A DNA stretch of 63,525 nt, the filler included, from Bilabrum cf. latius (taxonomy: Eukaryota), in NCBI GenBank assembly GCA_965178125.1. It is 3 parts of 3 records of this genome, joined end to end, with 100 filler letters (N's around TTAATTAATTAA, not from the genome) between each part and the next. Parts side by side here need not be neighbours in the genome. Positions count along the whole stretch, not along the records: positions 25,403 to 50,535 come from CBCXTV010000040.1; 2 more parts are not named here. The stretch is one strand, 5' to 3'. Positions 9,697 to 59,699 of the stretch are shown here, piece by piece. The notes under the pieces were generated by a model, which saw nothing but the letters and a program-made list of their open reading frames with translations, searched no databases and was not told the origin of the DNA. The position numbers were made by a program, and so were the translations under genes. How positions within the stretch are numbered: the stretch's first letter is position 1; each line of letters begins with the position of its first letter.

Positions 9697-9697
9697 G

Positions 9698-16293: not shown

Positions 16294-16299
16294 TTTTTT

Positions 16300-16356: not shown

Positions 16357-16360
16357 AAAA

Positions 16361-17673: not shown

Positions 17674-17674
17674 G

Positions 17675-20110: not shown

Positions 20111-20119
20111 AATAATATC

Positions 20120-21978: not shown

Positions 21979-21989
21979 AACCTTACACC

Positions 21990-25302: not shown

Positions 25303-25402
25303 NNNNNNNNNNNNNNNNNNNNNNNNNNNNNNNNNNNNNNNNNNNNTTAATTAATTAANNNNNNNNNNNNNNNNNNNNNNNNNNNNNNNNNNNNNNNNNN
25401 NN
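25303..25402. other. Artificial contig linker
   Basis: 44 N + TTAATTAATTAA (stops in all six frames) + 44 N. Confidence 0.97.
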
Positions 25403-37300: not shown

Positions 37301-38994
37301 GAGACCGGCGCAAGCTGCGTCGGCCGGAGACTGGCGTTGATCAAGTCTTGGTATGCTGAGCCCACTGCGGCACCCGTGGCTTGCATGGAGGCCTGCGCGA
37401 GGGTGTGCTCATAGAGCTCCTTGCCAATCTTTTCCCGCCAGCATTGTCCCATTTGGGCAACGAAATCGCGAGGCTGTCGCGGCCCCTCACGTCGGTCTTC
37501 TCCTCGCTGTTGCTGCTGGAGGTCCCGGTTCGATCGAATCACCTCGGCGAGATGATAGCTGCCAAGACGAACATTCAAATGGTCGGCGTCCGGGTAGAAC
37601 TGGGGAGCGAAGTGTTCCTTCTTCTGCTTCGTGTGCTTGAAGAGCTCCACCACTGTGTTGCTCACCTGGCCGGCGGCTCGATCGGTACCTGCGACCAGGT
37701 TCCTTCTGCCGTCGTCGTGCTGGCAGTAGCCCTGATGCCTCTGGACGCCGTCCAACCGATGCTTCTCGTAGATGGTCGGCCAGCGGGGCAACTCCTGATT
37801 CATGGTCTGCGACTGGTACTTCTTGTCCCAGGTGTAGGTGTCCTTCTCCTCAAACCTGCTGGTGTTACTGTCGCCTTCAGCGTACGACGCCTGCTGACTG
37901 CTCGCACTCGCGGGGAGGTAACCTGCCCTCACCAGGTCCGGAACCGAGCTGCTGGAGCTCGGGTGACTGGTGTGCGAGGCGGATGCGTCGTCGCTGTACT
38001 GGGAGTTCGTCATGAAAACCTGGCGAAAGTCACCTGACCCAGGGAATTGTTCAACCTGGGAGTGGAAGAGAACGGTGGAATGTCCATCGACCACTTGAGC
38101 ACGCGCAAGCTCTTCGTCGTTCCAGAGAGTGCCGGACGAGTCGACCGGCATCGTCATGTGTGCATTGACCATGAAGCCCTGGAACATCGGGTTCCGCTCG
38201 GCGGGCCCTTGTGAGGAGGAGGATGCGGCACCTGGTCCCATCTGCCATTGTGACCACGAAGTCCCACCAAAGTGGACAAGTTGATCGTTTCCGGATTCCC
38301 CTCCTTTCCCGCCGCCCTTCTGAGGGCAGCGGGCGGCGAAGTGCTCCTCAGATCCGCAGATGCGACACGTCATCACCTTTCCATCTGATCCGACGGGGTT
38401 TCGCATTCGCCCAAAGCCACCTGCAGAGGAGAACTTGCCCTTTCCTTTTCCTTTTCCTTTTCCTTTTCCTTTTCCTTTTCCTTTGTTGAACAGGAAGGCA
38501 CCAAAGTCGTGCATGTCCTGGGGATCGCTGGCGTCGGCCAAGTACTGATGATGGCGCCGAGTGAAGGGCTTTCCTTGGTATGATCGTCTCTTCTGAAAGT
38601 GCCCGGCCTGATCACGACGAAACTTAAAGAAGCGGAATGCCCTGCGGAACCGTCTTGTTGGCCGCCGCGTCGTTCGGCGCCAATCTCGCTTGGCCTTTCG
38701 GTACTGGAAGTAGATCTGCTCGTCGTGAGTCGCGGCCTGGCTGGGGTCGATGTCGTCCTCGCCGTAGTCCGAGGACGTGGCCGACGAGGACTCGGCCTCT
38801 GACTCATACAACTCGCCGTGAGTCATCAGGACGACCATGGTGTCCTCGCCCTCGGGCGAGGTCGGAGCTCCTTTCGAATCGGCGACCGGAGAGACTGTTG
38901 CATATGAAGGCTGAGCGGCACAAGCTGACAGAGCGGCTTCAGCCGATCGGCATCCACACGCTCCGTCTTGCACATTGACCGGATTCCATGCCAT
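31336..38994 (-). CDS. Polyprotein: CCHC zinc knuckle, RING-like Cys cluster, aspartic protease, integrase
   Basis: CRICGSEEHFAARC; LLIDPGSVGNL...LPGLLG; HVRWWH...CTVC; DDE motifs ECDLIF, MDGEGG, IERRG. Confidence 0.9.
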   Translation of the reverse strand: MAWNPVNVQDGACGCRSAEAALSACAAQPSYATVSPVADSKGAPTSPEGEDTMVVLMTHGELYESEAESSSATSSDYGEDDIDPSQAATHDEQIYFQYRKAKRDWRRTTRRPTRRFRRAFRFFKFRRDQAGHFQKRRSYQGKPFTRRHHQYLADASDPQDMHDFGAFLFNKGKGKGKGKGKGKGKGKFSSAGGFGRMRNPVGSDGKVMTCRICGSEEHFAARCPQKGGGKGGESGNDQLVHFGGTSWSQWQMGPGAASSSSQGPAERNPMFQGFMVNAHMTMPVDSSGTLWNDEELARAQVVDGHSTVLFHSQVEQFPGSGDFRQVFMTNSQYSDDASASHTSHPSSSSSVPDLVRAGYLPASASSQQASYAEGDSNTSRFEEKDTYTWDKKYQSQTMNQELPRWPTIYEKHRLDGVQRHQGYCQHDDGRRNLVAGTDRAAGQVSNTVVELFKHTKQKKEHFAPQFYPDADHLNVRLGSYHLAEVIRSNRDLQQQQRGEDRREGPRQPRDFVAQMGQCWREKIGKELYEHTLAQASMQATGAAVGSAYQDLINASLRPTQLAPVSSPQNPYQDLINASLRPTQPAPAPSPPNPRPMGSAQPPTVSYVGSPNTAGAPVSFTPDRTSASSESTQRTQPVPIRSMYGTFAGQTMPASDADVGQAGGGDADRLNPTGQSAIHTVGGQAWGALASVAYNVINVAQSALGSSTTQSRSLAPSTPVVSAQGAAGLSDWRPQLLPPSAAPPSALTSGIGSAVVLDETQVTYPSLAPMLESQDAPMYDAPVDVAAPFRAAAELAQPMPPAPAPMPAKDPKTTRTPASRRSSRRTPVQKSICKRMPRRRECTSRSPSASGRSASQARESSVEKRAAPDTPVEDPSQARRTTPRRDDASATTAPAAPPCDSVAAGSVAEPPPSKEEQPRDCGHNSCAICRKLWCEVLYDDGRVESADSNTVILSCGCRLHAKCYGEYEQQQYGVFRFMIDQGQADYDQHLQESETCESLFYQLICPRCADAVYAKTYIDVNGNANNTIATTPVLWAVHPPGIKEPSSHRVDGLLSTPINMWAPKVKQAFQRYAKSRPELQWLQLDPELDASAEEDDRMATPNDPKKTTEVTTEAEGASHYTTYENMQYQDAPLRVNGAGDYYHMNTRPLDGSSALLIDPGSVGNLCGDQWARKLGLQAIDHGYRPSEYTRPKPLRVSGVGHGSQWCNKDARLPIVLKSDTRADAILGEFITPIVPNSELPGLLGLATMRNARAILDLQDMRLYLCGEGDYDLTKALPSGTESFKLETSPSGHLLLPCSNFDEKSLAARKVSLLTQESSEQPTLTEQQGNEMMSLRTITPRMPRTPAPMAPPILPVHLETMDADFAGPPGGVQAPPCGCRSAEAGGVISDKPCSAYPCSVFNTSGFNAFFVAGTAHVIGSRQKLSICKDHGLSGCALHRLSDAMRARNKDYLPWQGKQLLIEVPPQMNPGFEHTLKSLVMPAINSGTSVTVFSVPDGKRLSQRHTWLDIWNKMHGTDIFRFVRRGIRTFVPDSDDNRQVYVASTCHLPDDADSDSIPTKGTTCGLFRRIFVLLVVVLLMLLGVHVGVARYDQGVPGHTRLSSSGPPAGGPSSTPSTSRPPQGGQETTTSYDPGAGSSSIRSQQRCDRGVLAFPTEAKQREKERRKLQKEAGNPHVAKKRTKIIEDHFDDCGEDLASLGSDPALLVGRYPVEVGFEQQINAGTVVYPVGPSSSSSGSGAASHSGPQLAPRPPGHRQKPVRDRRVPPGNEACLCPACQRNIAMDDPAHNRKVGQCAWPHVVPFYPGCQACQDRCQRGDPAHTFRFGECRFATGYVPVTRAARGDRPHDPVPPDTSEPTARLAPVDPDGRPMGTADEERVVAADRAQQGEARGCRSAEAALPDSVTRSSGPAEYRPAPPLPPDVVEVPDDAVDGRGQDGPRRAQRPRYADAAVGEAPQPDWTHFDIGNSVRALRTDNEAVIRRVLRKLHVRWWHASAQTLTRMLHRAGVPQKALDLVPSIVHSCTVCREWSRPGPMSASNAAIPDRFNEQVECDLIFISGHTILHMLDRCTRWHAAEVIPNKESATLINGITRLWFQTHGPPKELIMDGEGGISGSDDAKLFLNHHGVRLVVRPKDTHARYIERRGAIFRDCVHRLVTQCNVDGLNVPFERVLAEAVFAGNALLTVNGSTPYNAVYGRVPHILPSADQIDYPGGATKTSDLLSTRRLRELAVQAVVEGSAQARINRALGTRTTMAGEQLQLQLGDEVDFYREPSTKDVSGWYGPATVVDLTNLSRGMITLRWLRGLYEVAIRHVRRHLSYFTLDLSYATYNSPVHRNVWSTVVRMVNQLNEGTTISVGPEKTPNGWRRTASPVLPVFRAEFLCAARFQLDNVVAVKAGVGARHIGGTHGHELCVSMMWPRGGGPYVFHEQIADYAGHIPRFSVQAAVGPCWAKYCVIQFYCNAESVDLVEQQAQHNSVVPSGASSMATDSAPRLSTIPEERNSDLCDSDGTRQSLLSEFFIHEDPGMQQVLETVLLAGSVGEPKTQDVGTVVWMPIG

Positions 38995-39048: not shown

Positions 39049-39972
39049 TTAGCTGTCCTCGAGCATGTGGGGCTGCTCCTCCTGAAAATGGCGAGGCGCG
39101 TCGTGGCGCGCCGGTCGAGCTCTGCTCCGTCCGTCGGGGAAGGTCTCAGTGATGCCGACGAGGGGGTTTGACGCGTTCTGATCTTGCAGGAGGGCGTAGG
39201 ACTTGATGTCGTTGACCAGATTCGCATAGCCGACCTGCGTCGTGGGCAAGACGTTATTCGGAAGGCGTCTCGTGATCTCCCACAGGGCATGCTGCGGGAG
39301 CCCACTCAGTCGGACCATCTGGTGGCAGTGGTGACGCCACGGAAAGAACTCCTTCCCTTCGTCGAGCTGTCGAGTACGGAGATATTCGTAGCGATCGTGC
39401 ATTTGTTCGAACGTCTCCGTCGAGTACCGCTCGAACCGGTAGAGCTCGTCATCAATGGCGGCCTGGTCATCGGCCGCCCTGGGCGCATACTTCTCCACGA
39501 GGTCAGTGATGATCATCGACACGGGGTCCTGAACGTGGCCAGTTGCGTCATTCGTACGGCCCCGGATCAAGTCGGTCACCTTCCATCGCTGTCGTAGGAG
39601 GGCGGCACTACCCTGCAGACCGTTGGCGACGATGTTGCCTATCTCGTGGTGCTGGAACCGAGTGACACTGAGCCAACGCTGCAGGTCCTCGATGTACTCC
39701 CGCAAGGTGTAGTTGCGATCGGCAGGGTTCCAAGTGGGCGGCGCCGTCAAGTTGCCCATCGTAATCGAACGCGCTGACCTGTACGGGATCGCATAGGCGA
39801 CGATGGTGAGGATGGCTGCGAGAATCATCGCATGCATCATCCCCAACAGGTAGTGCACACGGCTGTGGGTGGCGTCGGGAGGCTGCATGCGCTGCTGCAC
39901 CGTCAAGGTGATTTCCGACGTCCGGTAAGTCGTGCGGCTCGCCTCCGTCACGTCCGTCACGTGTTGCTTCAT
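39049..39972 (-). CDS. Gag-like capsid region, in frame with the polyprotein across one TAA
   Basis: APPTWNP...LREYIEDLQRWL and LYRFERYSTETFEQMHDRYE; immediately downstream of the PBS. Confidence 0.7.
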   Translation of the reverse strand: MKQHVTDVTEASRTTYRTSEITLTVQQRMQPPDATHSRVHYLLGMMHAMILAAILTIVAYAIPYRSARSITMGNLTAPPTWNPADRNYTLREYIEDLQRWLSVTRFQHHEIGNIVANGLQGSAALLRQRWKVTDLIRGRTNDATGHVQDPVSMIITDLVEKYAPRAADDQAAIDDELYRFERYSTETFEQMHDRYEYLRTRQLDEGKEFFPWRHHCHQMVRLSGLPQHALWEITRRLPNNVLPTTQVGYANLVNDIKSYALLQDQNASNPLVGITETFPDGRSRARPARHDAPRHFQEEQPHMLEDS

Positions 39973-40082
39973 TGAACCGTAATCGTCAAGGCTGCCGTCG
40001 AGTGGTGAGTTCGGCGACACAGGCGTCTCCCGCGCAGGGGACGTAGGGGTGGATCGGGAGGAGAGAGTCCTGCAACCACGCT

Positions 40083-40094
40083 GCTCCGCTACCA
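40083..40094 (-). promoter_or_regulatory. Primer-binding site of element 1 (initiator tRNA-Met type)
   Basis: TGGTAGCGGAGC upstream of gag; the identical 12-mer follows the 5' LTR of element 3. Confidence 0.75.
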
Positions 40095-41669
40095 GGTCGA
40101 GAGACAGCCGCCTGGCCCGCGGAATCATGCGCTCTTGAGCCCAAGATGTACAGCAAGATGACCTTGAAGCTCGCGTAGCGACGAACCATGGCTGCTGAGC
40201 AAGGAGATGATTTTCCGCTGATGAGCGCAAGGGACCGCAAGTCAGGGGATTGTCTCGGGGTATGCTATACAAAAGGAAAGAACTTGTATGGCTTGCTGCA
40301 GCAATAGCCTGAGCCGTAGCTGCCAACACAACCATAAAGGTGCACTGCGAGTGCACCCCCTCGTCGGGACCCTCCTTTGCCCGTGCCCTTGGCCTCGGGT
40401 CCCTTCCCAGAGCCCCTGCTCTGGCTCCTGGCCCCACGGCCTGCAGGCGGTGCCTGAGCCTGAGGGGCAGCCTTCTGCGTATCGCGCCTCTGTGGAATGA
40501 CCATGCGCGCGTAGAAGTACTCGACACGGCGATTGGGACGGGGCTCGTGAACGGACGGGTGAATGCCGAACATGTCCTCGTGGAAGTGGGCGGCATTCCC
40601 CATGTAGATCGGTCCGTTGATGACCGCACGATGGCGCCGGTACATGCCGTGGGCGTACCGGCACATCCAATCGTGGGCTTCCCGTCCCAGCATTCCACCG
40701 GGCCACTCTCTCGGATTGGCCATCGGGTGGACCCTCGCCCCCATGGGCTCGTAGTCGATGTCAAGAGGGGTCCACGGAACGTCCAGACCCTCCGGGACCA
40801 ACTCGCCGCCCATTCCCGAGACGGGTTCCGTTGCCGCGGCACTTGCCACCGAAGGAGTTATGCTGGGAGGGGGGACAGGCGAGGCGGCGGGCAACGCTGC
40901 GGACGAACCGCTGCTTCGTCCGACCGCCTGTGCCGCTTCCTCCCCCTGCTTCGCTCCCTTCGGGGTCTTCTTCCTCTTCTTACTCGTCGCTCCGGAAGAT
41001 GCCGCGGCCGAGGAAGGGGTACTGGGCTTCGGAACGGCGGGAGCCGCTATGCCGCAGCTGATGGCGTACTTGGCTTCGGAACGGACGCAGTCGACGGCGG
41101 CGGTGCCGTCCCGGACCCTAATGCCGACGATGCGGGGACCGCCGAAGACGCTGGCTCTGCCCCTGGCGTCATCGTAGGCTTTGGCCGCTCAACCTCATAC
41201 GCGCTCTTAAAGAACTTCCTCGACTTCCTTTTCTCCCCGGCCTCCGACGACTGAGCTTCTGCCACCTCCTGCTCAGCCTTCTCCCTCGCCTCGTGCAAGA
41301 ATGCCGCCGCTTTCGCCTGAGCGTCCTTCCTCGTATTGGCGAGGATCTCATCGCGCGTCGCCCCGATCCTCACGGCGGCTGACGGCGTGAACTCGCCAAA
41401 GCGGGCGGCCAATTCTCCCACGCGCGACCTCTTCTCCTCCCTCGTCAACGCTCCCGTAGGCTTGACGACCCGCGACCCCTGTGGCTGGGGCGGCTCGGGT
41501 CCCAGGCGAAGACGCCGAGACCTCGTATCCGGAGCCGCGACCGAGGATGGCCCTGACTCGAAGGCCAGCGCGACACGTCGCACGGAGCCCCCCCGTTCCT
41601 GAGCTTGGACCGTAACACGGGGCAACGCTGCGGACGAACCGCTGCTTCGTCCCGCACCCGGCGCCTTGC

Positions 41670-44600
41670 TCAAGGGAAGGGGGCGTCTCCTCGCTTGGTT
41701 CCTTCTTTGCCTGCTCCGCCGCCACAGGTCGCTTGAGGAGTCTCTTCTTCTTCTTCTTCTTCTTCTTCTTCTTCTTCTTCCTTCTTCTTCTTCTTCTTCT
41801 TCTTCTTCTTCTTCGTCGGTGCGGACTCCCCCTCTTCCTTCGCGGTGGGGACGGCTTTGGCCTCAGCAGCGGCAACCACGGACTCGGTGGCTTCCGCCGT
41901 GGCGATAGGGGCTTCCGAAGTGGACAACGCTGCGGACGGACCGCTGCTTCGCCCTCCCTTCTTCCCCTTGATCTCCTTGGCGATACCCGTCCGAATTTCC
42001 GTGGCGACGCCCGTCCTTACCACCGGCTCCTCTTTGATCGCGACCGACGCCGGCGCTTCCTTCTTCTTCCCCGTCACCCGCTGCTTGGTTCCGGAAGGCT
42101 TCGCCGAGGACAACGCTGCGGACGAACCGCTGCTTCGCCCTGGTTTAAGCTCCTTCACCTCGCTAGCGGACATGGAACGGGGAGCGCCCGCAGGACCAGC
42201 CGGGGCGGCCTGCATCTCGACGTCGGCGTCCAACTTGGGCACCACCTTGAGCGAGAACGCTCCCATCTCCTCGTGCCCAGACCGTCGGACCCTCGCGAAC
42301 ATCCTGGAGAGCCTCTGTACCCCGGAATTTGTCGACACCAATGCCCTTGAGGCCTCCTTGGACGACATCGCCCGCGCAGCCGCAGCCCTTGCCAATCCGG
42401 CCCTCTGTCTTGCTGTGCGGCTGGCGTCGATGGGGTCGTCCTGGGCGTCGGGGTTGACGAAGATGACGTCATGATCCCCCCACACCCGCATGGTGTCCAC
42501 CAGCGACTCAATAGCCCGATCGCGATCGATCGTCGCGAAGCACGTGGCGATCCGGTCATCAATGCCCGCTTCCGGTCCGGAAAGGGTCTCGACGATCCAA
42601 TCCCACAATCCGCCCGGATCATTAGCGACCACCTCCTCAAACTCACTGATGTGTCTGATGATCGCGTCCTGGGGCATGAAACGACACGCCATCGTGAGGG
42701 CCCGAGTCTCGGCACGAATCCGAACGTCCGTCGGGTTGGTGCTGTCCGTTTGGGCCTCGCCCAAGTAGGCCGCGGCCCAGTATGTGAAGAAGCTTTGCGC
42801 CTTCTCACGCACCGTGACCTCTCCTGGTGTCGGGGACATCAGGCCCGGGGGAACCACCCACGCCTCCGTGCAAGTGGGGGCCGTAGAAAGTACCGTCCCC
42901 TTCTTCTGTGCCTCATTCCTGCGGTACTCCTCACCCTCCTTGGTCTGGCTGGTCCACGCCATAATGCGGTTCCTCTGCTTAGTGACCAACCTCGAGGCCG
43001 TGTTCTCATCGGAGGTCGCCTTCCTCTTCTTGCCGAGCTCATCCGTCGGGTCGCGATAGTACTCGCGCCTCAGCGTTCGCAACGCTTCCTGTGCCTGGAC
43101 GAGCTCGGTCGGCTGCGCGACGGCGGCCTCGACCGGCTGGCGGCGGGGGCGATACCCGAAGAGCGTTCCGCACTCGGGCTCCCCCTCATTGCGCACCGCC
43201 GCACACTTGGTGCTCCCGGCGATGACTCGCGCGTCGCAGATCGGGCACTTGAAGGACTTGTCCACACATCCTTCCACCGGATTGACAGCCGTCTCCATAA
43301 CGAGGGGCTGTTTCATCCACTCGGCGACGATGCGGAAGGCCGGGTCGCGAGTCCCCTTCTCCTTCCGAGTGCCGGCCCCAGGGGTTTGGCTTCGGGGCAA
43401 CGCTGCGGACGAACCGCTGCTTCGTCCCTCCGCCGTGCCCCCCGGGACCTGCGCGGGAGCCTGACCTCCGGACAACGCTGCGGACGAACCGCTGCTTCGC
43501 CCTTCGGCCTTGCTCCTCTCCTCGTCCGCCTGTGCCCTGATCTCGTCCCGCTTCCTGAGGGCTGCCGGGGCGTTGCCCCGAATCGCCACCTGCGTCGGCA
43601 CGTCAGCCATCCAGGACCGATGCCAGAGGTGCGTATACACTCTCGACACCGGGTTGAGGGTCACCACCGACTCGACGCAGCAAGACGGAATGGCATCCAA
43701 ACACAGGACCGAACCGCTCGTACTGACGAAGACGCTGTCGCGACGTACGACGTCATACAAGCGATCCAGGTCGACCCGGAGGAAAACTCCCGAAGTCGAC
43801 GCCCCTGCCCTATAGGCCGTGGAAGCCTCAAGGTTCCAGGGGGCCAAGAACGCCAGATGGACTGGCCTGTTCGCCGGCTGGATCCCTGTCATTAGGATGC
43901 TCTCCAAGTTCTTCGCCTCCGTGTGGTGCCACAGCCCCTGATTGAGCTTCTTCATCACGCGCGTGTCGGGCGAACGCAGGGCCAACCTCTCCATTCGGAT
44001 GAACTCGAGGGTATGGCCCTGAGCGACACGGACGAACTCCCACGTACACCTGACCGTGTGGTCCGCCGCCGTGCGTTTTCGCATTCCGACCTGGAACCGG
44101 GACTTCCCTGCTCCCAGCACGATGAACTGCAGCTCCATCATCGTGAGTTCTCGCTGGATGAGCCTTCTCGACACCATATTGTTGAGACGGTTGCGGAGGT
44201 GGTCCATCCGCACCCATCCCCCCGAGTCCATCGGGAGGGCCACCGCCTTGAGGTTGTACCCCCCCCCCCCCGTCCTCGGGACGGTGACGCCCACCTCGTG
44301 GCGCAACCACCGATTGATGGTGCGAGAAAACTCGTCCACAATCTTCGCGCCCATGTTGACCCGAAACCTCTCTGCCCTCTTGAAGAAGTCGGGAAACTGC
44401 TCCGATCCCGTTTGGAGCATGAAGAGGCTCCAGGCGAGCATGTTCGCATCGCGCGAAGCGACGTAGAATTCGTCTCGCATCCGGATGTTGAGGAGGTCCC
44501 GCTGGAACGACGTGCCCGCAAGGTCCCGTGGGTCGACGGTATCCGGCGGATTCAACAGCGAGTCGTTTTGAATCGCCGGGTCCGTCCGGAACAACTGACC

Positions 44601-47417
44601 CACAGAGATCCTCACTTCGCTCGGCGTCAGCATGGGATTGGGCACCTCCCAGTCGACAAGCTCGTCGTTGCCGGTCAATGCGATCCGTTCGGCCTGCTTG
44701 TCGATCTTCTCGATCTCCGGAACGCTGAGACCCGTTTCATCGGCGAGGCGGGCTCGCCTCTCCTTGACGGCGGCGGCTTGCTTCTTGAGCTCTGCCTCGT
44801 ACGTGACCCTTGCCTTGGCCATAGATGCCTGGTATGCCGCCTTCGCGTCCCTCTTCCTCCTCTTGATGCCAAGCTGGGCCGCCGCAGCGGGGGGCTCGCC
44901 TCCTTCCTGCGGGGCCCCTTCTTGGGCATCGCGCTCCTGCTCCTCCGCGGTGGTCGAACTCACCTCCTGGACAGAGCCGTAGTCGATGTCACTCAACTCT
45001 CCGGTCAATCCCAGATCGTCTTGTGCACCTGACTCTGCCTTTCGAGCAGCGAGCGCCTCTTCGCTGAGGACGGCCCGTCGCGCAACCACCGGGTCGCGGT
45101 CCCGATAATCCGGGTCATCTTCCTCATCCGTGTCCGGACCGGCGTCGCCTGCCGGAACGACCACGGGGGCCCCGGCGGGAGCGCGAGTGGCGTGCTTCGG
45201 GCTCGCCTCAAGCTCCTCCCGAACCGGCATCAGTCCGGAAGGGAGCTCCTCGCACATGTCCTCGTCGTCATCGCCGATGGGTGGCTCCGGCTTGGGGAGT
45301 ACGACGGCACTGGGAGCGGACAACGCTGCGGACGAACCGCTGCTTCGCCCGACCCCCTCGCCGCCGTGCTCCTCCGAGATCTCCGTCGGTTCGGCGCCGG
45401 GCAACGCTGCGGACGAACCGCTGCCTCGTCCGGACGCCTCCCCTCTGGTGACCTCGACCTCCGTCGGATCGGTGCCGGGCAACGCTGCGGACGAACCGCT
45501 GCTTCGTCCGAGCACCTCCCCTTCGGTAGGCCCGACCGCCGGAGAGTAACTCCGAGGTCTGCCCGGCTCCGGCTGGGGCTCGGGCATGGTCGACGGCGCC
45601 TCCTGCAACGCCATGGACGCCATCGCCTCCTCGGCCACCTCCAACTCGAGTTTGCCCTCGATTTCCTTCCGGACGATCTCACGCAACCTGCGATCGTCCT
45701 CCGCGTGACGACGAGCCCGCTCCTCCCTTTCCTCATCTGCCGGCAGTGGTGGAGGGGCGTCCATGGGCTCTTCCTCGGCCACAGGCAGGCGGGCCTCATC
45801 CTCCTCGTATTGGTCGGCGCCCAACCGTGCGGTAGCAACGATGTCTTTGCCCCGCATTTCCTCGAGTCGTGCGATGGGTCGGTCCACCGTGTCGTCGGGG
45901 TCAATCTCCTCGCCCATGGCAACCCTGACCGAATCGTTGATCGTCTCCTGGGTGGTTGCCATGAAGCTGAGATCGCACTTCTCATGTGGACCTACCTCCT
46001 CCGCCTCTTGGGCCTGCCGAATCGAGGCTCGCACTGCCTCCTTCGCCTCCTGCTCGAATCGATTGGGGGATGCCTCTGCCTCATGCCCCGCCCTCAATTC
46101 GAGATAGGCATCGCCCATGTCCTTGTTGATGAAGTCGTGCATCGAGCTACCTTCCAGAGAGATGTTCTGGTTGGTCTCCTTCCGATGCTGCTCCGCCAAC
46201 TCGTGGAACAAACGCTCCATTTCAAGGGCTGTGCCTCCTTGCCTCCGGAGATGCGGGTCTGACGCGTCGGCAATGGTCCGGGAGACCCCGAACAAGATGG
46301 CGGCGAGGTCGACGCTGTCCTCCGACGAACCGCCCTGGGAGCACGCTGCGGACGAACCGCTGCTCGCCCCTGCGCCTCCGAACTCCAGGGAGCGCTCCCG
46401 CACCCACTTCCTGTTGTGCGGGGCGGCCGAGACCCGGACCATGGTACATGCCGGGGAACATCGGAGGCCTCCTAGGACCTGGCTCCGAGACCGCTGGCCC
46501 CTGGGGCCTGCCGCGAGACTGCGCGGCAGGGCGCTCGGGAGAAACCGCTGGTCCCAAGGACCTGCCGCGAGACTGCGCGGCAAGACGCTCGGGAGAGGGA
46601 GCCAGGGGGCGGCGGGCCACGTAGGGAACGCTTTCGGCAGAGACGGGGGAAGAAGGGGCGGATACAGATCGCACCCCTGCGGCAGCCACGGGCGCGGGCA
46701 ACGCTGCGGACGAACCGCTGCTTCGTCCGACACCCGGGCCGCCTTCCTCCCCGCCATCCGCCTTCGCCTCCCCAATGGGCTCGCCGCCTCCGCGATCGTC
46801 TCCTCCATCGCGGCCGTACCCTGACCCTCGGCAATCGGGGAACCGCCCTCGAAGTAGGGGTCGACGGTGACTCCGGGCAACGCTGCGGACGGACCGCTGC
46901 TTCGTCCGGCTTCAACCGCCATTTCCCCAAGGTGCTCGGGCGACGCCGCTCCCTCCGAAGTGGACGGGGACACTGATCCCTCACCACGCGGAATCGCCCC
47001 CCGATATGTGCCGATGATCTTCTCCGGGGCCCCGACCTTCTTCAACACGTCTTCCAGATCGGTTTCGGACTCGAACCGGTCGTCTGCGAAAACGTCGAAG
47101 ATCTCACCTTCATCCTCCTCGCGCACCTGGATGGGAGCTCCCTGGGCAGGGCGTGGGCGCACGGTGGGCGAACCACCACTGTCACCCGGCGGCTTCGGAG
47201 AGGTGACGGGTCCCGCTGCGGACGAACCGCTGCAAACGGACTCGCTCCCCTCCTCGGCCTTCTCGCCCTCCTCCTCGTCCCTCTCGCCGCCGTCGGCAAG
47301 GGGCTGAGGGCCGACAGAGTCCGGACCATACCACTCCTCCCACTCCGCGCAAATGGCAGCGGTCCAGTGGGGAGGAAAACCCGTGGTAAATCCGGTCGTA
47401 CATGCTCTGCTCGGCAA
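41670..47417 (-). CDS. Large cargo protein with a Tpt1/KptA (RNA 2'-phosphotransferase) domain at about 44335-43660 and a following Cys-rich zinc ribbon; continues through frameshifts to about 40265
   Basis: FSRTINRWLRH...MDSGGWVRM...KSRF...VRVAQGHT...LWHHT...LESILMTGIQP..RPVHL...FVSTSGSVLCLDAIP follows the Tpt1 motif order. Confidence 0.8.
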   Translation of the reverse strand: MPSRACTTGFTTGFPPHWTAAICAEWEEWYGPDSVGPQPLADGGERDEEEGEKAEEGSESVCSGSSAAGPVTSPKPPGDSGGSPTVRPRPAQGAPIQVREEDEGEIFDVFADDRFESETDLEDVLKKVGAPEKIIGTYRGAIPRGEGSVSPSTSEGAASPEHLGEMAVEAGRSSGPSAALPGVTVDPYFEGGSPIAEGQGTAAMEETIAEAASPLGRRRRMAGRKAARVSDEAAVRPQRCPRPWLPQGCDLYPPLLPPSLPKAFPTWPAAPWLPLPSVLPRSLAAGPWDQRFLPSALPRSLAAGPRGQRSRSQVLGGLRCSPACTMVRVSAAPHNRKWVRERSLEFGGAGASSGSSAACSQGGSSEDSVDLAAILFGVSRTIADASDPHLRRQGGTALEMERLFHELAEQHRKETNQNISLEGSSMHDFINKDMGDAYLELRAGHEAEASPNRFEQEAKEAVRASIRQAQEAEEVGPHEKCDLSFMATTQETINDSVRVAMGEEIDPDDTVDRPIARLEEMRGKDIVATARLGADQYEEDEARLPVAEEEPMDAPPPLPADEEREERARRHAEDDRRLREIVRKEIEGKLELEVAEEAMASMALQEAPSTMPEPQPEPGRPRSYSPAVGPTEGEVLGRSSGSSAALPGTDPTEVEVTRGEASGRGSGSSAALPGAEPTEISEEHGGEGVGRSSGSSAALSAPSAVVLPKPEPPIGDDDEDMCEELPSGLMPVREELEASPKHATRAPAGAPVVVPAGDAGPDTDEEDDPDYRDRDPVVARRAVLSEEALAARKAESGAQDDLGLTGELSDIDYGSVQEVSSTTAEEQERDAQEGAPQEGGEPPAAAAQLGIKRRKRDAKAAYQASMAKARVTYEAELKKQAAAVKERRARLADETGLSVPEIEKIDKQAERIALTGNDELVDWEVPNPMLTPSEVRISVGQLFRTDPAIQNDSLLNPPDTVDPRDLAGTSFQRDLLNIRMRDEFYVASRDANMLAWSLFMLQTGSEQFPDFFKRAERFRVNMGAKIVDEFSRTINRWLRHEVGVTVPRTGGGGYNLKAVALPMDSGGWVRMDHLRNRLNNMVSRRLIQRELTMMELQFIVLGAGKSRFQVGMRKRTAADHTVRCTWEFVRVAQGHTLEFIRMERLALRSPDTRVMKKLNQGLWHHTEAKNLESILMTGIQPANRPVHLAFLAPWNLEASTAYRAGASTSGVFLRVDLDRLYDVVRRDSVFVSTSGSVLCLDAIPSCCVESVVTLNPVSRVYTHLWHRSWMADVPTQVAIRGNAPAALRKRDEIRAQADEERSKAEGRSSGSSAALSGGQAPAQVPGGTAEGRSSGSSAALPRSQTPGAGTRKEKGTRDPAFRIVAEWMKQPLVMETAVNPVEGCVDKSFKCPICDARVIAGSTKCAAVRNEGEPECGTLFGYRPRRQPVEAAVAQPTELVQAQEALRTLRREYYRDPTDELGKKRKATSDENTASRLVTKQRNRIMAWTSQTKEGEEYRRNEAQKKGTVLSTAPTCTEAWVVPPGLMSPTPGEVTVREKAQSFFTYWAAAYLGEAQTDSTNPTDVRIRAETRALTMACRFMPQDAIIRHISEFEEVVANDPGGLWDWIVETLSGPEAGIDDRIATCFATIDRDRAIESLVDTMRVWGDHDVIFVNPDAQDDPIDASRTARQRAGLARAAAARAMSSKEASRALVSTNSGVQRLSRMFARVRRSGHEEMGAFSLKVVPKLDADVEMQAAPAGPAGAPRSMSASEVKELKPGRSSGSSAALSSAKPSGTKQRVTGKKKEAPASVAIKEEPVVRTGVATEIRTGIAKEIKGKKGGRSSGPSAALSTSEAPIATAEATESVVAAAEAKAVPTAKEEGESAPTKKKKKKKKKKKEEEEEEEEEEEEETPQATCGGGAGKEGTKRGDAPFP
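41744..41815. repeat. (TTC)n microsatellite encoding poly-K/poly-E, with a 1-base phase shift
   Basis: Seen directly. Confidence 0.9.
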
Positions 47418-48815
47418 GCTCCCATTTCATCCGATGAAGAGTCTCTTTGAGATCGTCGAGCAGGGCCGCCCTGTTGCGTGCCCGCTCTACTCGCTTGGCG
47501 ATCTCCTCATCGCGCCGCACGAGGTCCTTGTGCATGTCCCGCGCCTTGAGATGGGCCTGGCGGGCCTCTTCGCTGACCACGCACCCGTCGGGATCGATGT
47601 CGATGAACCTCTTGAGCTCCTCCACGAAAGTGAACCGGGCGGTGGCTGCAAGCTCTTGCGCCCTGAACCTATTCGTGAATGGGGAGTCCCACCGCGTCTC
47701 CGACGGACGGATCCCTCCATAGGACGGATCGGTGTCCACGAACTTCCGCACGTCGATGTATGTGTGGTGGTAGACAGACGCATCAGCCAAAGCTTCAGGG
47801 GCGCGCCGCTCCGCGTCATACGAATATGCGGGTGCTGTGGGCACGCTTCCCTTGAGCCGGTTGAGCCGTCTCACCTGGGCCTCCTTCGGTGCCAGGGACG
47901 CCAACATCATCAACAGCGACGTTTCGTGGACAAGCGTGTCTTTGGACTCGTCGGTGCGGCACGAGTGCCAGTTGTCGGTCCTTCCCTCAGGGAAAATGTA
48001 CCGGTGCTCGCTGAGCCCCCGGCACAAGGACCATCCACTGGTTGTGACCGTGCCGATCGAGTCCATCGCGACGCGTGCTTGCGACATTGAGACATCGAAG
48101 CTCGAATTGCGGCCCTCTCCGTACAGCCTGCCATGGTGGCACACTGCCACCAGATGGCTGTCGAACATCCGCAAATAGCCCCTCATCTTCGCCGCGTCTT
48201 CGGCCAGGAAAGTAGAGTCCTCCCAGTACACGCTGTTGCCGGACCAGATGACCAGCGCAGCGTGACCGGGACCCATATGCCACTGCGATCCTTTGGCGCG
48301 AAGCTCGGGGTCGGTGACTTCGTAAAGGGGCCACTTGTCCACCGCGATCTCGAGCTGCTCGATGATCCCCGCCATCACCGCTCCTTCCGTGGTGTAGTCG
48401 ATCATCTTCGTCTCAACGTCGCAATTGAGGTGCCACGAGCGGTTTCCCAAGTGCCACTTGAACGTCTTTCCCACCGTGAGCCACTCGCTCTTGTTGCGGA
48501 GGCTCGCCCCTTTCCTGGCGTTCCCTTGTCGGGGTGAAACTGCATCTGGAAGTAGATCCAGCACCGCTTCGCCTTGGCGTATGGCGTGCTCAGGGGAACG
48601 TACATTTCGCGGTGGAGATCCCCAACGCTCTGCACGAGCGCCAATGCGTAGGCGTACTTCCACTCCACGTATTTCCTCCAACGCTCCCGAAAGGGGAAGC
48701 GAGGAAGCAACCCGTCCTTGTCCCGTAAATCCTTCAACGGGATTGGGACCTCATAGCCATAGTAGCGCCGCCAGGTGTGTGGCACGAGCGTGGACAAGAT
48801 ATCCTGCCCCGCCAT
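47182..48815 (-). CDS. Element 2 upstream cargo ORF (frameshifted), unknown function; weak SGNH-like motifs
   Basis: MAGQDILSTLVP start shifts into track ORF 47182-48681; LVIWSGNSVY and DNWH resemble SGNH blocks III and V. Confidence 0.4.
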
Positions 48816-49063
48816 CTGTGCCACCCCAATCTGCGGGCTTCTGCGGCTCCTCTCCTCCTTCTCCTCAGACCGGCTCCGCGGAGGTGTCCGGGAGCACGGC
48901 CTTAGGACGCCGAAGCGTCGGGGGTTGACCCTGGGGTCGAGCGGGGTCGCCCGAAGGCGAAGGGCTGGGGCGCACGGGTGCGCGAGCGCAAAGGGCAGCC
49001 GGTCGGCGCGTCCCTTCGAGTTCTGAATAAGAACGGCATCGCACACGCGCTCATCCCCATCCT

Positions 49064-49795
49064 TCACCAGACCTTCCGACACGACCTTGACCACCCCTTA
49101 TGAATCGCTCTCGCAAAGGAATCAGGATAAATCTCCGATGCTTTGGTAATAGACCCCTCGCATCGGACATGATGGAAACCCCCACCATGGGAACATGACA
49201 AGTGGGACCCGTCATCCCTAAGGGGTTTTCCTATCCCGTCCAAGAGCGAACGGACGGTAGAATCGACACGCCATAATTGCTCCCCGCGGCGCGGGCCGAC
49301 GTGGGCCACAAGACCCACTTCGCATCCATGGACAACCATGGAGCGCATGTTGAGCGACCGCAACGTGTCGCGAATGGCAACCTGGTTCGTCCCGTCCGGA
49401 CAGCGTCCCTCCTCAGTCCAGTGCCAGTAGGAGCAGGCCAACGGCCACTCCCATGCCAGGTCGGCCTTCCCAGACCGAACCCAGGGCAGCACCACCGAAC
49501 AGAAGGACTCCCAAAGACGCCTGAGATCATCCCAATGTTCCTTAATCTTATCCTGCGTATCGGGGTTTCCCTTTCTCCAAGTTTGCCTTTGCCACGGAGA
49601 CCCGCCCGTGCACGGACAAGACACCCATATCAACACAGGGTGTGCGAGAAGCGCCGAAGTATGCGGCTCACCTTGCACCTGCCTTTCATGCACCGGAAAT
49701 CATCCACCAACGTGATGCGAAAGACGCGACACGAGGGATGGGCCACAGCCCCAATGGTGGAGGTCGCAGAGCAACAGATCTCGATAATAACGCGC
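49064..49795 (-). CDS. C5 cytosine-methyltransferase-like domain fused after RNase H (frameshift near 49660)
   Basis: VIIEICCSATS (motif I-like), IWVSCPCT (IV, PC), AWEWP (VI), VHGCEVGL (VIII region), SEIYPDSFARAI (X-like). Confidence 0.6.
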
Positions 49796-49989
49796 GAAAC
49801 ACCCCCCGAACCCCCCGGACCCCCAAAATCCCCCCGTCCGTGCGGGGGCGGGGCCTCGGGGCCCGACAACCCACAGAACGCTGCGGACGAACCGCTGCTT
49901 CCCACGGGCGCCGGAACGGCGGCTTCCTCGGCCTCAGCTCGCAGGGCCGCCTTCGTCGGGGGCGGGTTCGCCCAGAAGTGGATATTCCC

Positions 49990-50535
49990 CGCGACCGTGA
50001 AGGAGGAGACGTCATAAACACCAATAAGAGTGCAGACGGCCCTCCATTTGTCCCCGTTATCAAAGGCCTTGGTGTAGATGTCGGCGGCTTGACGATCGGA
50101 CTGGACATACATCAACGAAATGTCCGACCGGGAGAAGGTCTCGTGCAACGAGGCCACCGCCACGGCGTGGGTGCGCAACAGGTGTCGCATCGTGGGATTG
50201 CGTCCCGAGCGGCACACCCGGATCATTGCCTCGTTATCCTCGTGAAAGCAGAGGGGGAAATGCCCCGGACACAAGACATCCCATAGGTCCAGCATGGGCA
50301 ACCCCTCCCGCCTCAAGGCGAGATCCGCCGCGACAATTTCCGCCTCTGGCGTGGAATGGCTAACGCAATCCTGCCTCTTGCTCTGCCCGTTCAACGGAAA
50401 GTACGTATGGGGGCCCGAAATGGCAATGTGCATGCCCGAGGTCGACTTCTTCGAAGGATCGCCGGCAAAATCCGCATCGGCGTAAAGGTCGAAGGTAACC
50501 TCAGACATGCCGTCCCCGACGTACCCCATCTGTCG
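49990..50535 (-). CDS. Copia-type RNase H (C-terminus of pol, 5' part off the contig)
   Basis: LYADADFAGD, KSTSG, SHSTPEAEIVA, FHEDNEAMI, QAADIYTKAF. Confidence 0.92.
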
Positions 50536-50635
50536 NNNNNNNNNNNNNNNNNNNNNNNNNNNNNNNNNNNNNNNNNNNNTTAATTAATTAANNNNNNNNN
50601 NNNNNNNNNNNNNNNNNNNNNNNNNNNNNNNNNNN
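50536..50635. other. Artificial contig linker
   Basis: 44 N + TTAATTAATTAA + 44 N. Confidence 0.97.
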
Positions 50636-52462: not shown

Positions 52463-55400
52463 TTGAGGACTTTGAGAGTGACGTCAATTACAGCAACGGC
52501 GGCTAGGCATACGCAATGGAGCAACGAACCCTGGCTCTGTTCTCGGAATCCACGGCATCACAACGAAAACCCCTCCGTCCTTCGACGAACGTACCTCCTG
52601 GTTCTCCTACGCTGCTCGGGTCGACGACGGGTCGACCTCACAGTGGTGAACGCCGAGAAACACGGACCAGCACTCAATCACAGGCTCCTCGGACGAGAAG
52701 CAATCCACGAACCGCTCTTCGACAGAGACCTTCTCAAGGATCCGGATACCGGTGTACAGTACTTCAACGACACACTTCGACCGCACTTCGTGAAAGGCAA
52801 CCAATCAGTGTTCCTGTGGCGGTCATTCTAGTTGCTGCTTTGCAACAGAAGTACTTATGACCTCGTGAAGTGGATCGGCAAGTTGGCAGTCCTACATAAG
52901 CGTGTCCAAGACGCCTGGACAGACCTTCTGCCGGCCATCGACGACAACAATCCCGAGTACCGAGCACAAGCAGTTCGCGCCAACGCCGTGCGATCACGGG
53001 ACGGACGCAACACCCTGGACCCTCTTGACCCTGAGGTCTTCGCCGAGTTCACGGAGCGCAAACAACGTCTCCAACGCGAAAACTTTCCGCTGAACGACCA
53101 CCTCTTCACGTTGACATTCGTCGCCCTTTCCGACTTGACGGAAGAACAGCGCGAGCGGCTACAATCCACCAAATCTCTCCGAAAACAGCGCATCCAAGAC
53201 TACACCTTTGACACAATCCGGGGCGTATTCGTGGAACTCTTCTGCGCACCGCGCAGCAGCCGTGACAGTCCAAGCCTACGATCCGGCGGCACCGGCCGTT
53301 CCTTCTGGATTCTCTGCATTCTCGAGGATGGACACATGGACTGCTACCAGGGGTTCTGGTGTCAAGACGACATGACCAGCGACGAAAGCTTCTCGCCAGA
53401 GGACACGTTCTGGGTCTTCGACGAGACCGCCGAGCTGACGGCCATGACGCACATGCTTTCATGACCGATCAAACCAACACAACAGCTTCTATGCAAAATT
53501 GGCGGACAAGTTTGACGCAATCCTGCGTATATGGCTCTGGATCTTGGGTGCACACGAGCCATGGGATCCAGAAAACCATGCGAAGCCTTCGCGAAGGAGG
53601 CTTCCTGGCACGGCATGCATGTGCAATACCCACCAGGCCAGACGAATTTTGCCTTTGCCAACGGGAAGACAACGAAGGTGACGACGACCTGCACTATCTG
53701 GTTCCCGACGAAGCCGCCGTCTCCCACACAAGTCGACGTTATCGACGAAGGCGCTGTTATATTTCCTTCTTCCTCAGATGATGATCCGTGTGGAACCAGG
53801 TTTTGCGTACGTCATCGGTCTTCCTTGCTGACTCAGGACTTGCGACTTGAGGTCTCTACGACAGAACATTCGGCGCTCGACTTGGCCTCCCTTCGCCACT
53901 GCCCGACCGGTCCAACGATGACCGTGACGCCGGGCGTGACGTTCGCGACGCACGGCACAGTTTGTGAGCGAAGGCCTGACACACAAGCCCCGAATGAGGA
54001 GACCGCGAAATCGAGCGCCGTGCCAGTCGGAGCACACGAGCGAGACCCCAACTATCCGGCGTGTCAAGGAAAACGCAGTAAACACGCGCGCGGACGCATT
54101 CGCAGGGAGATGGACGCCAACTTGTACGCCGATCCCCCCACGCTAGAGACGCTGCCGAGGTTCCGTGTGAGCGGACGAGAACTGACGCTCCGCCCGAGGA
54201 TCCGCGCCAAGAACCAGGCGCGCAAAAGGAAGTGGTGCGCGAGCGGTCGCCTCGACTCGAGCACCCGTCGGACGTTGGACGGATCTCAGGATCCAACACA
54301 GGACCGACGGAGCGACGCGACGCCCTCCTGGATCCCACTCCTCCGGTCCCGGAACCGCCTCCGGGGAACGATATCGACTAGGAACAAGGCGCGGTCCCGG
54401 CTGATTGCACGCCTGGACGACGACACGAAGCTTTGAGGTCTCCACCTCAAGCATTTCCCTGTGTCCACGTTGCAGTTTCTCAGACGAACTCCGCATCTCA
54501 ACCTTCCGCAGAAGATCTATGACCGCTTCGACCGTGTGATTCGCACTTGCGAATACTACAGCCGGCACCAGCCGGCGCCACACTGAGGCCTGGTGTCCGA
54601 CTTGCACGCAGAGAACTTCGGAGATCTTATCTTCTTGGACCATGACCAGGTGAAGATCAACGCGCAGAAACTCTTCCTCATCGTCCTTGCCGGAGTCACT
54701 GATTTCCTGGCGGCCTATCCTCAGACGACGCCAAGTCCGGAGGACATGGTCAGGAACATTCACGACTGGAGGGACACCTACTCGTGCAATCCCAAGCGCG
54801 TTGTTGCCGACGTGGCTTGCCACACACCAAAGACCGTTCGAGATTTCGTTCGGCATCGCAACGCTCGGCCAATGCTGACTGGACCGGCCACGCTGTGGCC
54901 CAACGGGGTCGAGTCTGGCGTATGTCTTTTCAAACGATTCTCCCGGGCACTCGCCGACGTCATGAAACGACCCAACCTAAGCCATGTGACTCCCCGACAA
55001 CTCATTCGCAAGGCCGCCGCGGCTCGCAACACGTCCATCGCCAAGAGCGGCAAGACACCGCTCGAGCTTGCCCTCTGTCGCCGGCCGCGCGATCTCCTCG
55101 ACGCGTCCACCGCGGCCCCGCAACGACCGACCGCGCAAGGCCGGGCAAGACAGACGAGGGGATCCAGAAGGTCGCCATAAAGATCCACCTTGAGGTCACG
55201 CAGCCGGAGGACCGCCGAAGAAACCTCGCCGCGTCCCTCTGGTTTATTGACGGAACATGCTTCCCAGGAGACCGTGTGTAGTACTGGCAGTCCAATCCGT
55301 CGGACATCCGGCATCGGCCAGTGGATTAAGGCGATGGCTTTCTCCGTCAGTGGGCCGATCTGCACCATCGACGCCGGCGCTTTGCTTCTCAAGGTCAATC

Positions 55401-58400: not shown

Positions 58401-59180
58401 AGCACGCGCGCCGCCTACCGCAGCGCGCTCGGACAACTCAACTGGTTACAGGCCCGCGCACAGTTCCACATCTGCTACCGTTTCTCGCCCTGCGCCTCGG
58501 CCTCTGCCGCGGCGACAATCGCCGACGTTCGCGCAGAGAGCAAGGCGGTCCGCGCCGTCCGTGCGACCCCTGTCACATTGAACTTGTTTGGCCCGTTCAC
58601 GGGACTCTCCGACTTGTCGGCTCTCCCGGCGCAGCATATCGGAACAACGCAGACAAGACATCGCAACGGGCACATGTGACGCTCCTCTGTGTCCCGCGTG
58701 AGCGGGCGGAAAAGAACACTTTTGGCTCTCTCATCACTTCGAAAGCCACAATGTCGACAGAACAGCCCGCTCCACCGCTGTCTCCGAACTGCATGAGTTC
58801 ATGAAACCCGATGGACGAGGCCAAGTCCTTCGCGGCCTGTGGATGGACATCCCTGGAGAAGTCGCCGACATTCACATGCACACCAACGCAAACAACCTAG
58901 CGGGGACCGCACCCACCACACACCTGCCAACACAGACGGACCCGATCCATATGATACAGATGCTTCCCAAGGAAGCGTGCTCGGGAAGCCTCCACGACTT
59001 AGCGTACATTCGAACCGCGCGCTCTTTTTCCGGCTGCTTAACGAAGCGCTCAGCCAAGCCACTCGAACTCATTCGCGCGCCCGCACTTGAGTCGGGAGTG
59101 CAACGTGAAGTGCATCTACATCCGAATTCTCGCACACTCACCAAGCATCGCGCCTTCTTGGCAGAGTGGCAGAGCATGTA
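52463..59180 (+). pseudogene. Fragmented gag-pol of element 3
   Basis: gag LRPHFVKGNQSVFLWR; PR MALDLGCTRAMGS (53531); IN LHLKHF, FGDLIFLDH, WPNGVESGV; RT HIDLKTAFLQGE (about 57740) and LHVDDLF (about 58150); many stops and frameshifts. Confidence 0.85.
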
Positions 59181-59699
59181 CACGAATATCGACCGAGGCT
59201 TCACCTCGGCGTCGGCAAGAGGTGAATGCGATTTCATAGGTGAATTCATGAGGTTGAAGAGGCTACGAAGACAGCGTCTGCATTTCGGTTTCGTGCCTCT
59301 CTCGTTTTTGCATTGTGTACATTGCATGCCTGCGTGCTTGTGCTTATTGCGCTCGCTTCATACATTTTTATGGGCTGTCGCTTTCCTGCAGTAGCCTCCG
59401 ACTCTGGCAGTGGCCCCATGCGCCAACGCTTTGCGTCGCAACGCCGCAGCCGAAGCTAGTATCGCGTGAGCGAGCTTCTGCTGCCCGACTCGTCGCCCGT
59501 TCACAAGACACCGCCTCAGAACACCTCGACATATACCGCCTGTCACAACAAGACATGAGGTCTCTTTGGGCGGCGTTCTTCCACAAGTCTCGCATGAGCG
59601 AGCCGGAAGTCGCCGACGAAGGTGAGGTGCCCAATCTAAATTGGGCAGCGAATGGGCGCGCGAGGTGCGAGCGTCGAAATGGCTCGCCCGCTCCGTGAA

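Follow-up and report, generated by a model that had tools for sequence, protein, structure and literature searches.

A hairpin motif repeated along the coding strand of a Ty1/copia-like retroelement

Why should a retroelement repeat one short palindrome, almost letter for letter, through its own coding sequence? The question is raised by the 63,525-nucleotide (nt) stretch of DNA analysed here (the window), from the GenBank assembly GCA_965178125.1 of Bilabrum cf. latius, in which a first-pass annotation had described about 14 copies of a 25-nt hairpin motif (AACGCTGCGGACGAACCGCTGCTTC) at 40893-49901, on the second of two copia-like retroelement parts (element 1 and element 2) encoded by the minus strand of contig B (25403-50535, ~62% GC). 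All of these copies were found. They combine repetition with an invariant nucleotide sequence, a strong bias towards one reading frame and flanks that are complementary copy by copy, and they lie in a retroelement and are specific to one family. We tentatively favour the explanation that the motif caps a family-specific, cis-acting stem-loop cassette, placed in frame and under selection at the nucleotide level.

Copies of the motif

A search with AACGCTGCGGACGAACCGCTGCTTC, allowing up to three mismatches, returned 13 matches, all on the plus strand and at the positions first listed: nine exact (40893, 41624, 42112, 43399, 43474, 45322, 45481, 46700 and 49877), three with one mismatch (41926, 45403 and 46879) and one with three (46342). 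The 14th copy, previously placed at 47214, spans 47212-47236 and has five mismatches, all at its edges. No match was expected by chance, and none occurred in 100 shuffles. A covariance model built from the copies and run with filters off over 25403-63525 (contigs B and C) recovered only these 14 (49.7-78 bits, as against at most 13.6 bits on the antisense strand). Twenty columns (GCAGCGGTNCGTCCGCAGCG) are invariant in all 14 copies, bar one T/C position, and the conserved unit is longer than the 25 nt first described: it is a 33-nt imperfect palindrome that reads GGRC-GAAGCAGCGGTTCGTCCGCAGCGTT-GYCC on the coding strand, beyond which most copies have flanks that defy alignment. Where copies stand in tandem, their periods of 75, 78 and 81 nt equal the length of the hairpin and are always a multiple of three. 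In coding order, and with reference to a long open reading frame (ORF) at 41670-47417, the copies are as follows.

49873-49905, minus strand: apex of copy 49877 (core 49877-49901), read as GSSGSSAAF about 55 codons past the end of the RNase H domain
47208-47240, minus strand: degenerate copy 47212, with five edge mismatches and the central 19 nt intact
46875-46907, minus strand: copy 46879, with a loop T>C change that turns Ser to Pro
46696-46728, minus strand: copy 46700, the sole copy in another frame of the long ORF (EAAVRPQR)
46338-46370, minus strand: copy 46342, with three mismatches and lacking the extended lower stem (folding z score -0.35)
45292-45535, minus strand: three tandem in-frame cassettes with cores at 45322, 45403 and 45481 (periods 81 and 78 nt), with compensatory changes between units
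43369-43528, minus strand: two tandem cassettes with cores at 43399 and 43474 (period 75 nt), just downstream of a Tpt1-like domain and both kept in the related protein P0002
42108-42140, minus strand: copy 42112
41922-41954, minus strand: copy 41926, with a loop T>C change
41620-41652, minus strand: copy 41624, 22 nt past the stop codon of the long ORF (41670-41672)
40889-40921, minus strand: copy 40893, the final one, where element 2 meets element 1

The exact 25-mer had no match in genome, viral and metagenome contig collections and is absent from the nearest genome (G001, described below), and Rfam 15 models, including those of ribozymes and retroviral elements, gave no match at E <= 1 on either strand of 25403-50535.

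Structure of the stem-loop

The GCGG/CCGC stem around TTCGT that had been described as the hairpin is real but is just the tip of a larger structure. The 33-nt apex has 14 stacked positions, among them fixed non-canonical ones (A.A, A.G, G.U and one that is A.C or G.U), and a UUCGU loop; outward from the loop, the stem consists of 4 base pairs (bp), A.A, 2 bp, A.G, A-U, G.U, C-G, A.C/G.U, G-C and G-C. In 13 of the 14 copies, folded with 30-nt flanks, a further 15-21 copy-specific pairs enclose the apex, giving a predicted stem-loop of 72-84 nt.

These lower stems depend on each copy having its own flanks. Exchanging the 3' flanks among copies weakened folding (a cognate mean of -32.9 vs -28.6 kcal/mol with 20-nt flanks), and with flanks of 15-40 nt none of 5,000 derangements reached the cognate mean. 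Cores planted at random spots of the same region folded at -21.0 kcal/mol, compared with -32.2 kcal/mol observed (0 of 20,000), a control that also lacks the semi-conserved GGRC/GYCC. Against dinucleotide shuffles, ten of the 14 copies had folding z scores of -2.4 or below, the best hairpin being that of copy 45322 (-56.4 kcal/mol, z = -6.3).

Pairing is also maintained while the sequence changes. An ungapped alignment of 61 columns has 82.1% of its cells paired (75.6 ± 1.6 in shuffles; 38-62% in slid registers), with a covariation score of 0.218 vs 0.121 (reached in 0 of 500 shuffles), and nine of 18 pairs have changed on both sides among copies that are paralogues within one element, not independent lineages. 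Between the tandem units 45481 and 45403, for example, one lower-stem pair goes from T:A to C:G. The position flanking the core is A.C in seven copies, G.U in six and C/C in one (a degenerate copy), and is never G-C or A-U, though either is one mutation away; in comparative studies of RNA, A.C and G.U are the classical pair of isosteric, interchangeable wobbles.

For 12 of the 14 copies, folding favours the sense over the antisense strand (mean -5.4 kcal/mol, vs -1.9 ± 4.7 kcal/mol for random 65-mers). Lower-stem G.U pairs number 26 on the sense strand vs 15 on the antisense strand in element 2, and 14 vs 15 in element 1. We favour RNA as the relevant molecule, single-stranded complementary DNA (cDNA) being less likely.

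Codons and peptides

The motif had been reported to read mostly as SSGSSAA and once as EAAVRPQR, and so it does: ten of the 11 copies in the long ORF read (R)SSGSSAA(L), and copy 46700 reads EAAVRPQR at a place where GC content at third codon positions (GC3) favours the ORF frame (0.81 vs 0.64). Copy 49877 reads GSSGSSAAF in a second ORF (49630-50529, minus strand), and copies 41624 and 40893 lie past the stop codon of the long ORF. Over the 14 copies, the six codons AGC GGT TCG TCC GCA GCG show no difference at any of 84 third positions, and two of them, GGT and GCA, run counter to the local GC3 bias (~0.8). The 12 near-exact copies contain just three point changes, each of which alters an amino acid: a loop T>C in two cases (Ser to Pro) and an A>G in one (Ser to Gly).

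Synonymous positions that varied freely would, by the first-pass annotation's own account, have marked the motif as only a peptide repeat. Frozen third positions together with peptide-altering changes are the opposite of what a peptide-level repeat predicts. Because the invariant tip sits on a copy-specific lower stem at each copy, the sequence itself appears to be preserved, and not only the peptide.

Host element and window

The window is a concatenate in which linkers of the form N44-TTAATTAATTAA-N44 (25303-25402 and 50536-50635) carry stops in all six frames, and it thus comprises three joined contigs of a draft assembly. Contig A (1-25302, 40-52% GC) is 100% identical at 14800-25300 to G001, a prokaryotic genome (single contig, 99% complete, 3.4 megabases (Mb)). 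Adjoining that DNA, at ~890-14800, is a 155-bp tandem repeat in ~74 copies, its blocks broken at ~3400-4450, 6900-7000, 9400-10740 and 13200-13300. Contigs B and C are GC-rich, bear retroelements and are foreign to the bacterium of contig A, and contig B has no match in G001. They probably come from a GC-rich, repeat-rich eukaryote that was co-assembled with the bacterium; the dinoflagellate spliced-leader motif, in the form known to us, has no match in the window.

Element 2 has its own motif, as claimed, but is not a whole element. From its sequence it is the post-RNase H part of a Ty1/copia-like retrotransposon, truncated by the contig end, where it starts with the RNase H tail of a Ty1/copia pol. 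This ORF has 125 relatives at E <= 0.001, many with PF07727 and two named as Ty1/Copia ribonuclease HI or polyprotein, and it is through these RNase H relatives that the Ty1/copia order of RVT_2 then RNase H is recognized, the reverse transcriptase itself lying beyond the contig end. Contig B has no long direct repeat of the kind expected of long terminal repeats (LTRs), the 5' half of the element being absent from the contig, and a 12-nt primer-binding-site motif, as we know it, gave matches at chance level only. After RNase H come a Cys-rich domain, further ORFs and the long ORF, whose GC3 of ~0.8 marks its frame as coding along nearly the whole 5.7 kilobases (kb). The principal coding features are these.

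49630-50529, minus strand: Ty1/copia RNase H region from the C terminus of pol, truncated at the contig end, with the next domain in another frame (49064-49693)
41670-47417, minus strand: ORF of 1915 amino acids (aa), with 11 of the 14 motif copies in low-complexity linkers between folded segments and its stop at 41670-41672
43701-44333, minus strand: Tpt1/KptA RNA 2'-phosphotransferase-like domain (PF01885, residues 1029-1239, E = 7.7e-14)

In several copia families, the Cys-rich domain (49064-49693, minus strand; also in P0019 and P0020) is conserved directly after RNase H. The window copy changes frame near 49690, where P0019, a relative 95% identical, reads through in one frame, and the window copy is therefore slightly degenerate. 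By eye, the Tpt1/KptA domain seems to have intact LRH, SRF and VRVAQGH motifs, which we take to be those characteristic of this family, and the domain also occurs in two distant relatives (P0004 and P0010); we know of no other retrotransposon with it, and a literature search on the combination listed none. Generic Tpt1 clusters were all that an atlas look-up returned. Relatives of the copia lineage also carry varied accessory domains (dUTPase PF00692, PABP PF00658 and Tet_JBP PF12851), which suggests that genes have often been captured downstream of pol. Just before the stop of the long ORF lies a long (AAG)n(GAG)n microsatellite (41740-41816, minus strand), read as poly-Lys and poly-Glu, and short tandem duplications occur in ORFs of both elements (46487-46594, 54 nt twice, 87% identical; 37217-37353, 68-69 nt twice, 91%).

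Thousands of short contig pieces from four public runs (three studies) together cover the whole of 40700-50500, and in one of them (run X1) 29,748 pieces matched this interval at 85% to >99% likeness, with differences that are mostly transitions. The element 2 family is therefore present in very high copy number in its source organism.

Family specificity

Element 1 (RVT_2 in the ORF at 28688-31354; a CCHC zinc knuckle and an integrase core in the ORF at 31336-38994) has a different motif, GGCTTCAGCCGATCGGCATCCACAC, which contains the palindrome GCCGATCGGC and occurs nine times at 26475-38959 on the minus strand. Its flanks likewise form copy-specific stems, of ~8-15 bp (0 of 5,000 derangements), and six copies of the motif are read as DADRL(N/K)P, two or three as CRSAEA and none in the remaining frame, which holds a TGA. 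The two motifs occupy adjacent, non-overlapping blocks and are not interleaved; the switch between them, proposed to mark the boundary of the elements, falls between 38959 and 40893, a zone that holds a long element-1 ORF (39049-40842) just upstream of the CCHC/integrase ORF. BLASTP of element 1 against element 2, for both accessory ORFs and RNase H parts, returned nothing significant.

Contig C carries a third motif, AGTCTCGCRTGAGCGAGC, in 14 copies at 55468-62310 (plus strand), on the coding strand of another degenerate retroelement, with a CTCGC/GCGAG stem around a GTGA or ATGA loop; an integrase-like ORF is visible by eye at 54593-55180. The three retroelements of the window thus have three different private motifs, which bears out the family specificity implied by the earlier term 'private barcode'; 'barcode' itself, with the recognition function it implies, is an interpretation.

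Among relatives, P0002 (88% identical over 522 aligned positions) keeps 22 of 22 motif residues in both cassettes downstream of the Tpt1 domain, in the same Ser-then-Pro order, while the linker around them differs at nine of 28 residues; in P0019, GSSGSSAAF is intact and three residues directly beside it have changed. A protein-guided locus search with the Tpt1-region protein found no relative in metagenome or viral contigs, and a word-indexed protein search with residues 880-1400 at near length found no match. Ten of the 138 proteins compared (121 of them relatives of element 2) carry dispersed repeated hexapeptides of their own, for example VASGDA five times and VAPGDA twice in P0029 and SLGDSPIA twice in P0020 (also P0024 and P0128), and P0020 and P0029, as in element 2, have one copy in the first linker after RNase H. 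From the possible codons, our guess would be that these private peptides are also encoded by palindromes.

Favoured explanation

Under the explanation we lean towards, the motif would be the invariant apex of an in-frame cassette of ~75-85 nt, iterated 14 times and always on the sense strand, with each lower stem (15-21 bp) built from neighbouring codons and the copies sitting in the linkers and 3' tail of the post-RNase H region. Selection would act on nucleotide sequence and pairing, and the Gly/Ser/Ala peptide, GRSSGSSAAL(P/S), would be a tolerated flexible linker. Acting in cis on genomic RNA (or, less probably, on single-stranded cDNA), the hairpins would give a family-specific factor, perhaps the Gag or nucleocapsid of the element itself, many copies of one site to recognize, and a very long RNA might in this way be selectively encapsidated or dimerised. 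We favour a cis-acting role on genomic RNA for three reasons: non-canonical positions are fixed within an invariant apex, there is covariation in the stems, and families that co-exist in one genome have different motifs.

Several observations weigh against this explanation. The covariation and structural evidence comes entirely from paralogous copies in one degenerate element copy; any single fixed outer register pairs in only about half of the copies; and four of the 14, including both degenerate ones, have unremarkable folding z scores (-0.02 to -1.76). Linkage of A.C and G.U comprises two haplotypes only, which may reflect one event and not repeated covariation, and independent events cannot be counted for that reason. 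The strand asymmetry is mostly due to the conserved apex, and, given the lower-stem G.U counts of the two strands, a DNA or cDNA hairpin is possible even though RNA is favoured. For the contig C motif, cognate flanks fold no better than swapped ones (2,416-3,688 of 5,000 derangements reach the observed value), and extended stems are therefore not universal. The frame bias of the copies in the long ORF implies either that the peptide also matters or that in-frame units spread; we read it as tolerance, in that only the Gly/Ser/Ala reading would give a harmless linker, or the copies would have spread as in-frame units. Finally, that the stem-loops are transcribed and fold in vivo, that RNA is the molecule concerned and what function they have are things we infer from sequence, and a role in packaging is suggested by analogy.

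A more ambitious version of the cis-acting explanation, which we consider rather unlikely, is that every lineage among these giant copia-like retrotransposons has its own RNA 'zip code', a hairpin with an apex that co-evolves with a lineage-encoded RNA-binding protein: iterated 9-14 times on an RNA of at least 20 kb, with its hairpins in frame in polyprotein linkers, it would allow only same-lineage RNA to be recognized, for packaging, dimerisation or protection.

Alternative explanations

The main rival, possible although we doubt it, is that the cassette is a selfish or mutational by-product, a palindrome that multiplies by tandem duplication and by template switching of the reverse transcriptase, or by fold-back synthesis, and survives where it is harmless, much as Rickettsia palindromic elements do in bacterial genes, without a function of its own. 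Hairpins are pause and template-switch sites for reverse transcriptases, the tandem periods equal the cassette length, and the copies lie in low-complexity linkers where ten of 11 are in the frame that yields a Gly/Ser/Ala peptide; the element 1 motif, similarly, is confined to its two open frames and absent from the one with TGA. Contigs from other runs also join or skip between copies, as in an in-frame 156-nt skip that removes cassette 43399, but such joints in k-mer contigs may be an assembly effect at a short repeat, and we do not use them as evidence of recombination. Neutral decay, however, would be uniform, whereas here the core is invariant and the flanks unalignable; orthologous cassettes are unchanged in the relatives at 88% and 95% identity while adjacent linker residues have changed; and a fixed A.A (14 of 14 copies) with A.C/G.U alternation is unlike a product of fold-back copying.

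That the repeat acts as a peptide, with GRSSGSSAAL(P/S) a functional peptide (perhaps a family-specific protease cleavage site or a linker that joins polyprotein modules) whose nucleotide identity reflects recent duplication or gene conversion, seems to us improbable. It would account for the single frame of ten of the 11 ORF copies, shared by copy 49877 in another ORF, for the placing of copies at domain boundaries, for the peptides kept in P0002 and P0019, and for the different private peptides that other families have in their first post-RNase H linker, and it has a precedent in the virus-specific cleavage heptapeptides of potyvirus polyproteins. It does not account for the absence of synonymous differences (0 of 84) beside three point changes that all alter the peptide, for copy 46700 being read in another frame within a GC3-supported ORF, for two copies past a stop codon, for copy-specific complementary flanks or for the translation of the element 1 motif in two frames.

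Still less probable is a small-RNA precursor, that is, hairpins diced by a Dicer-like enzyme for host silencing or for control of the element's copy number. In size, stem imperfections and folding energy (-34 to -56 kcal/mol for 85 nt) they are similar to hairpins like microRNA precursors, and the family is very high in copy, but the conserved part is the apex and loop and not a 21-nt arm, and an element would be unlikely to conserve triggers of its own silencing.

We give about as little weight, or slightly less, to a site acting in double- or single-stranded DNA, whether a cruciform, a joint for recombination or module shuffling, or the target of a DNA-binding protein. Lower stems pair almost equally on both strands and contigs of other runs join different copies, but all 14 copies have one orientation, the antisense strand reaches at most 13.6 bits with a model of structure and sequence, the conserved G.U of the apex becomes A.C on the other strand, and joints at a 25-33-nt repeat may arise in the assembly of k-mer contigs.

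Removal of the cassette from the transcript as a hairpin-delimited intron, like the introner elements of Amoebophrya, is scarcely credible: although PMC7789003 describes protist genes with 8-20-nt inverted repeats at non-canonical intron ends, one frame with a GC3 of ~0.8 and no stop runs through ten of the 11 ORF copies (46700 being in another phase), the hairpin spans are not multiples of three, no 3-5-nt direct repeats were seen at hairpin bases in the copies inspected by eye, and the centre is conserved in element 2 but not in introners.

Two further candidates were rejected. Excision of the tRNA-splicing or IRE1 type, prompted by the Tpt1 domain and two GCAGC words, does not fit the 1x1 mismatches seen where a bulge-helix-bulge or 7-nt loops would be needed, and losing the 14 nt between the GCAGC words would shift the frame at each copy, yet one frame spans ten of the 11. 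Frameshift stimulation does not fit copies that lie inside ORFs and not at ORF overlaps, save the degenerate copy 47212.

Significance

Should the cassette function as a cis element, it would be an example of a very long retroelement RNA labelling itself with a lineage-specific structural signal, repeated many times within the sequence that encodes its proteins. Since all three retroelements of the window carry private motifs, and some relatives of element 2 private repeated peptides, the phenomenon may be general in this GC-rich, repeat-rich eukaryote, where it would provide a way to test how competing transposon families recognize their own. Were the zip-code version true, these would be the first dispersed, family-specific packaging signals in a retrotransposon and a natural overlap of protein and RNA-structure codes evolving in concert. 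The motifs are in any case excellent family markers for annotating elements and bring to light contigs of eukaryotic origin within a bacterial assembly. Literature listings and abstracts, together with passages of PMC7789003 and PMC5890265, contained no account of such cassettes, though one may exist elsewhere.

Comparison with known systems

The introner elements of Amoebophrya, as described in PMC7789003, resemble the cassette in being short units in protist genes whose 8-20-nt inverted repeats fold into hairpins; unlike it, they are introns with 3-5-nt direct repeats at their borders and no conserved centre, whereas the element 2 cassette lies in a continuous ORF, appears in relatives' predicted proteins and has a conserved centre. 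More generally, the copies do not look like insertions of introners or of miniature inverted-repeat transposable elements: the outer arms differ from copy to copy and conservation is confined to the centre, inspection by eye showed no direct repeats in the flanks, and all copies in the window belong to one element and not to unrelated genes.

Cleavage motifs of the potyvirus NIa type are, like the cassette, short private motifs at the module boundaries of a polyprotein that differ between related families, but the constraint on them is at the peptide level: they form no hairpin, and their synonymous sites are free to vary. The central polypurine tract of lentiviruses and Ty1 is likewise a short, element-specific signal repeated exactly within ORFs, with synonymous sites frozen, yet it is purine-only, unstructured and present in one or two copies, in contrast to a mixed-base palindrome present 14 times.

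Closer in form are the Rickettsia palindromic elements, which share with the cassette an in-frame, hairpin-forming repeat, a translated and tolerated peptide and many copies. They are bacterial and 100-150 bp long, occur in many unrelated genes and are conserved from end to end, whereas the element 2 unit is confined to one family and conserved only in its 33-nt apex; because it lacks both whole-length conservation and genome-wide spread, the relation is one of analogy and not of membership.

The dispersed packaging signals of single-stranded RNA viruses (MS2, satellite tobacco necrosis virus (STNV) and the pregenomic RNA (pgRNA) of hepatitis B virus (HBV), in the model of Stockley and Twarock) have, to our knowledge, not been described for LTR retrotransposons. 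They share only a few degenerate loop bases, compared with the 20-33 invariant nt of element 2, for which binding of a factor is suggested by analogy with them; like the cassettes of element 2, they are many stem-loops within coding sequence, with a shared apical motif on variable stems, and are specific to each virus.

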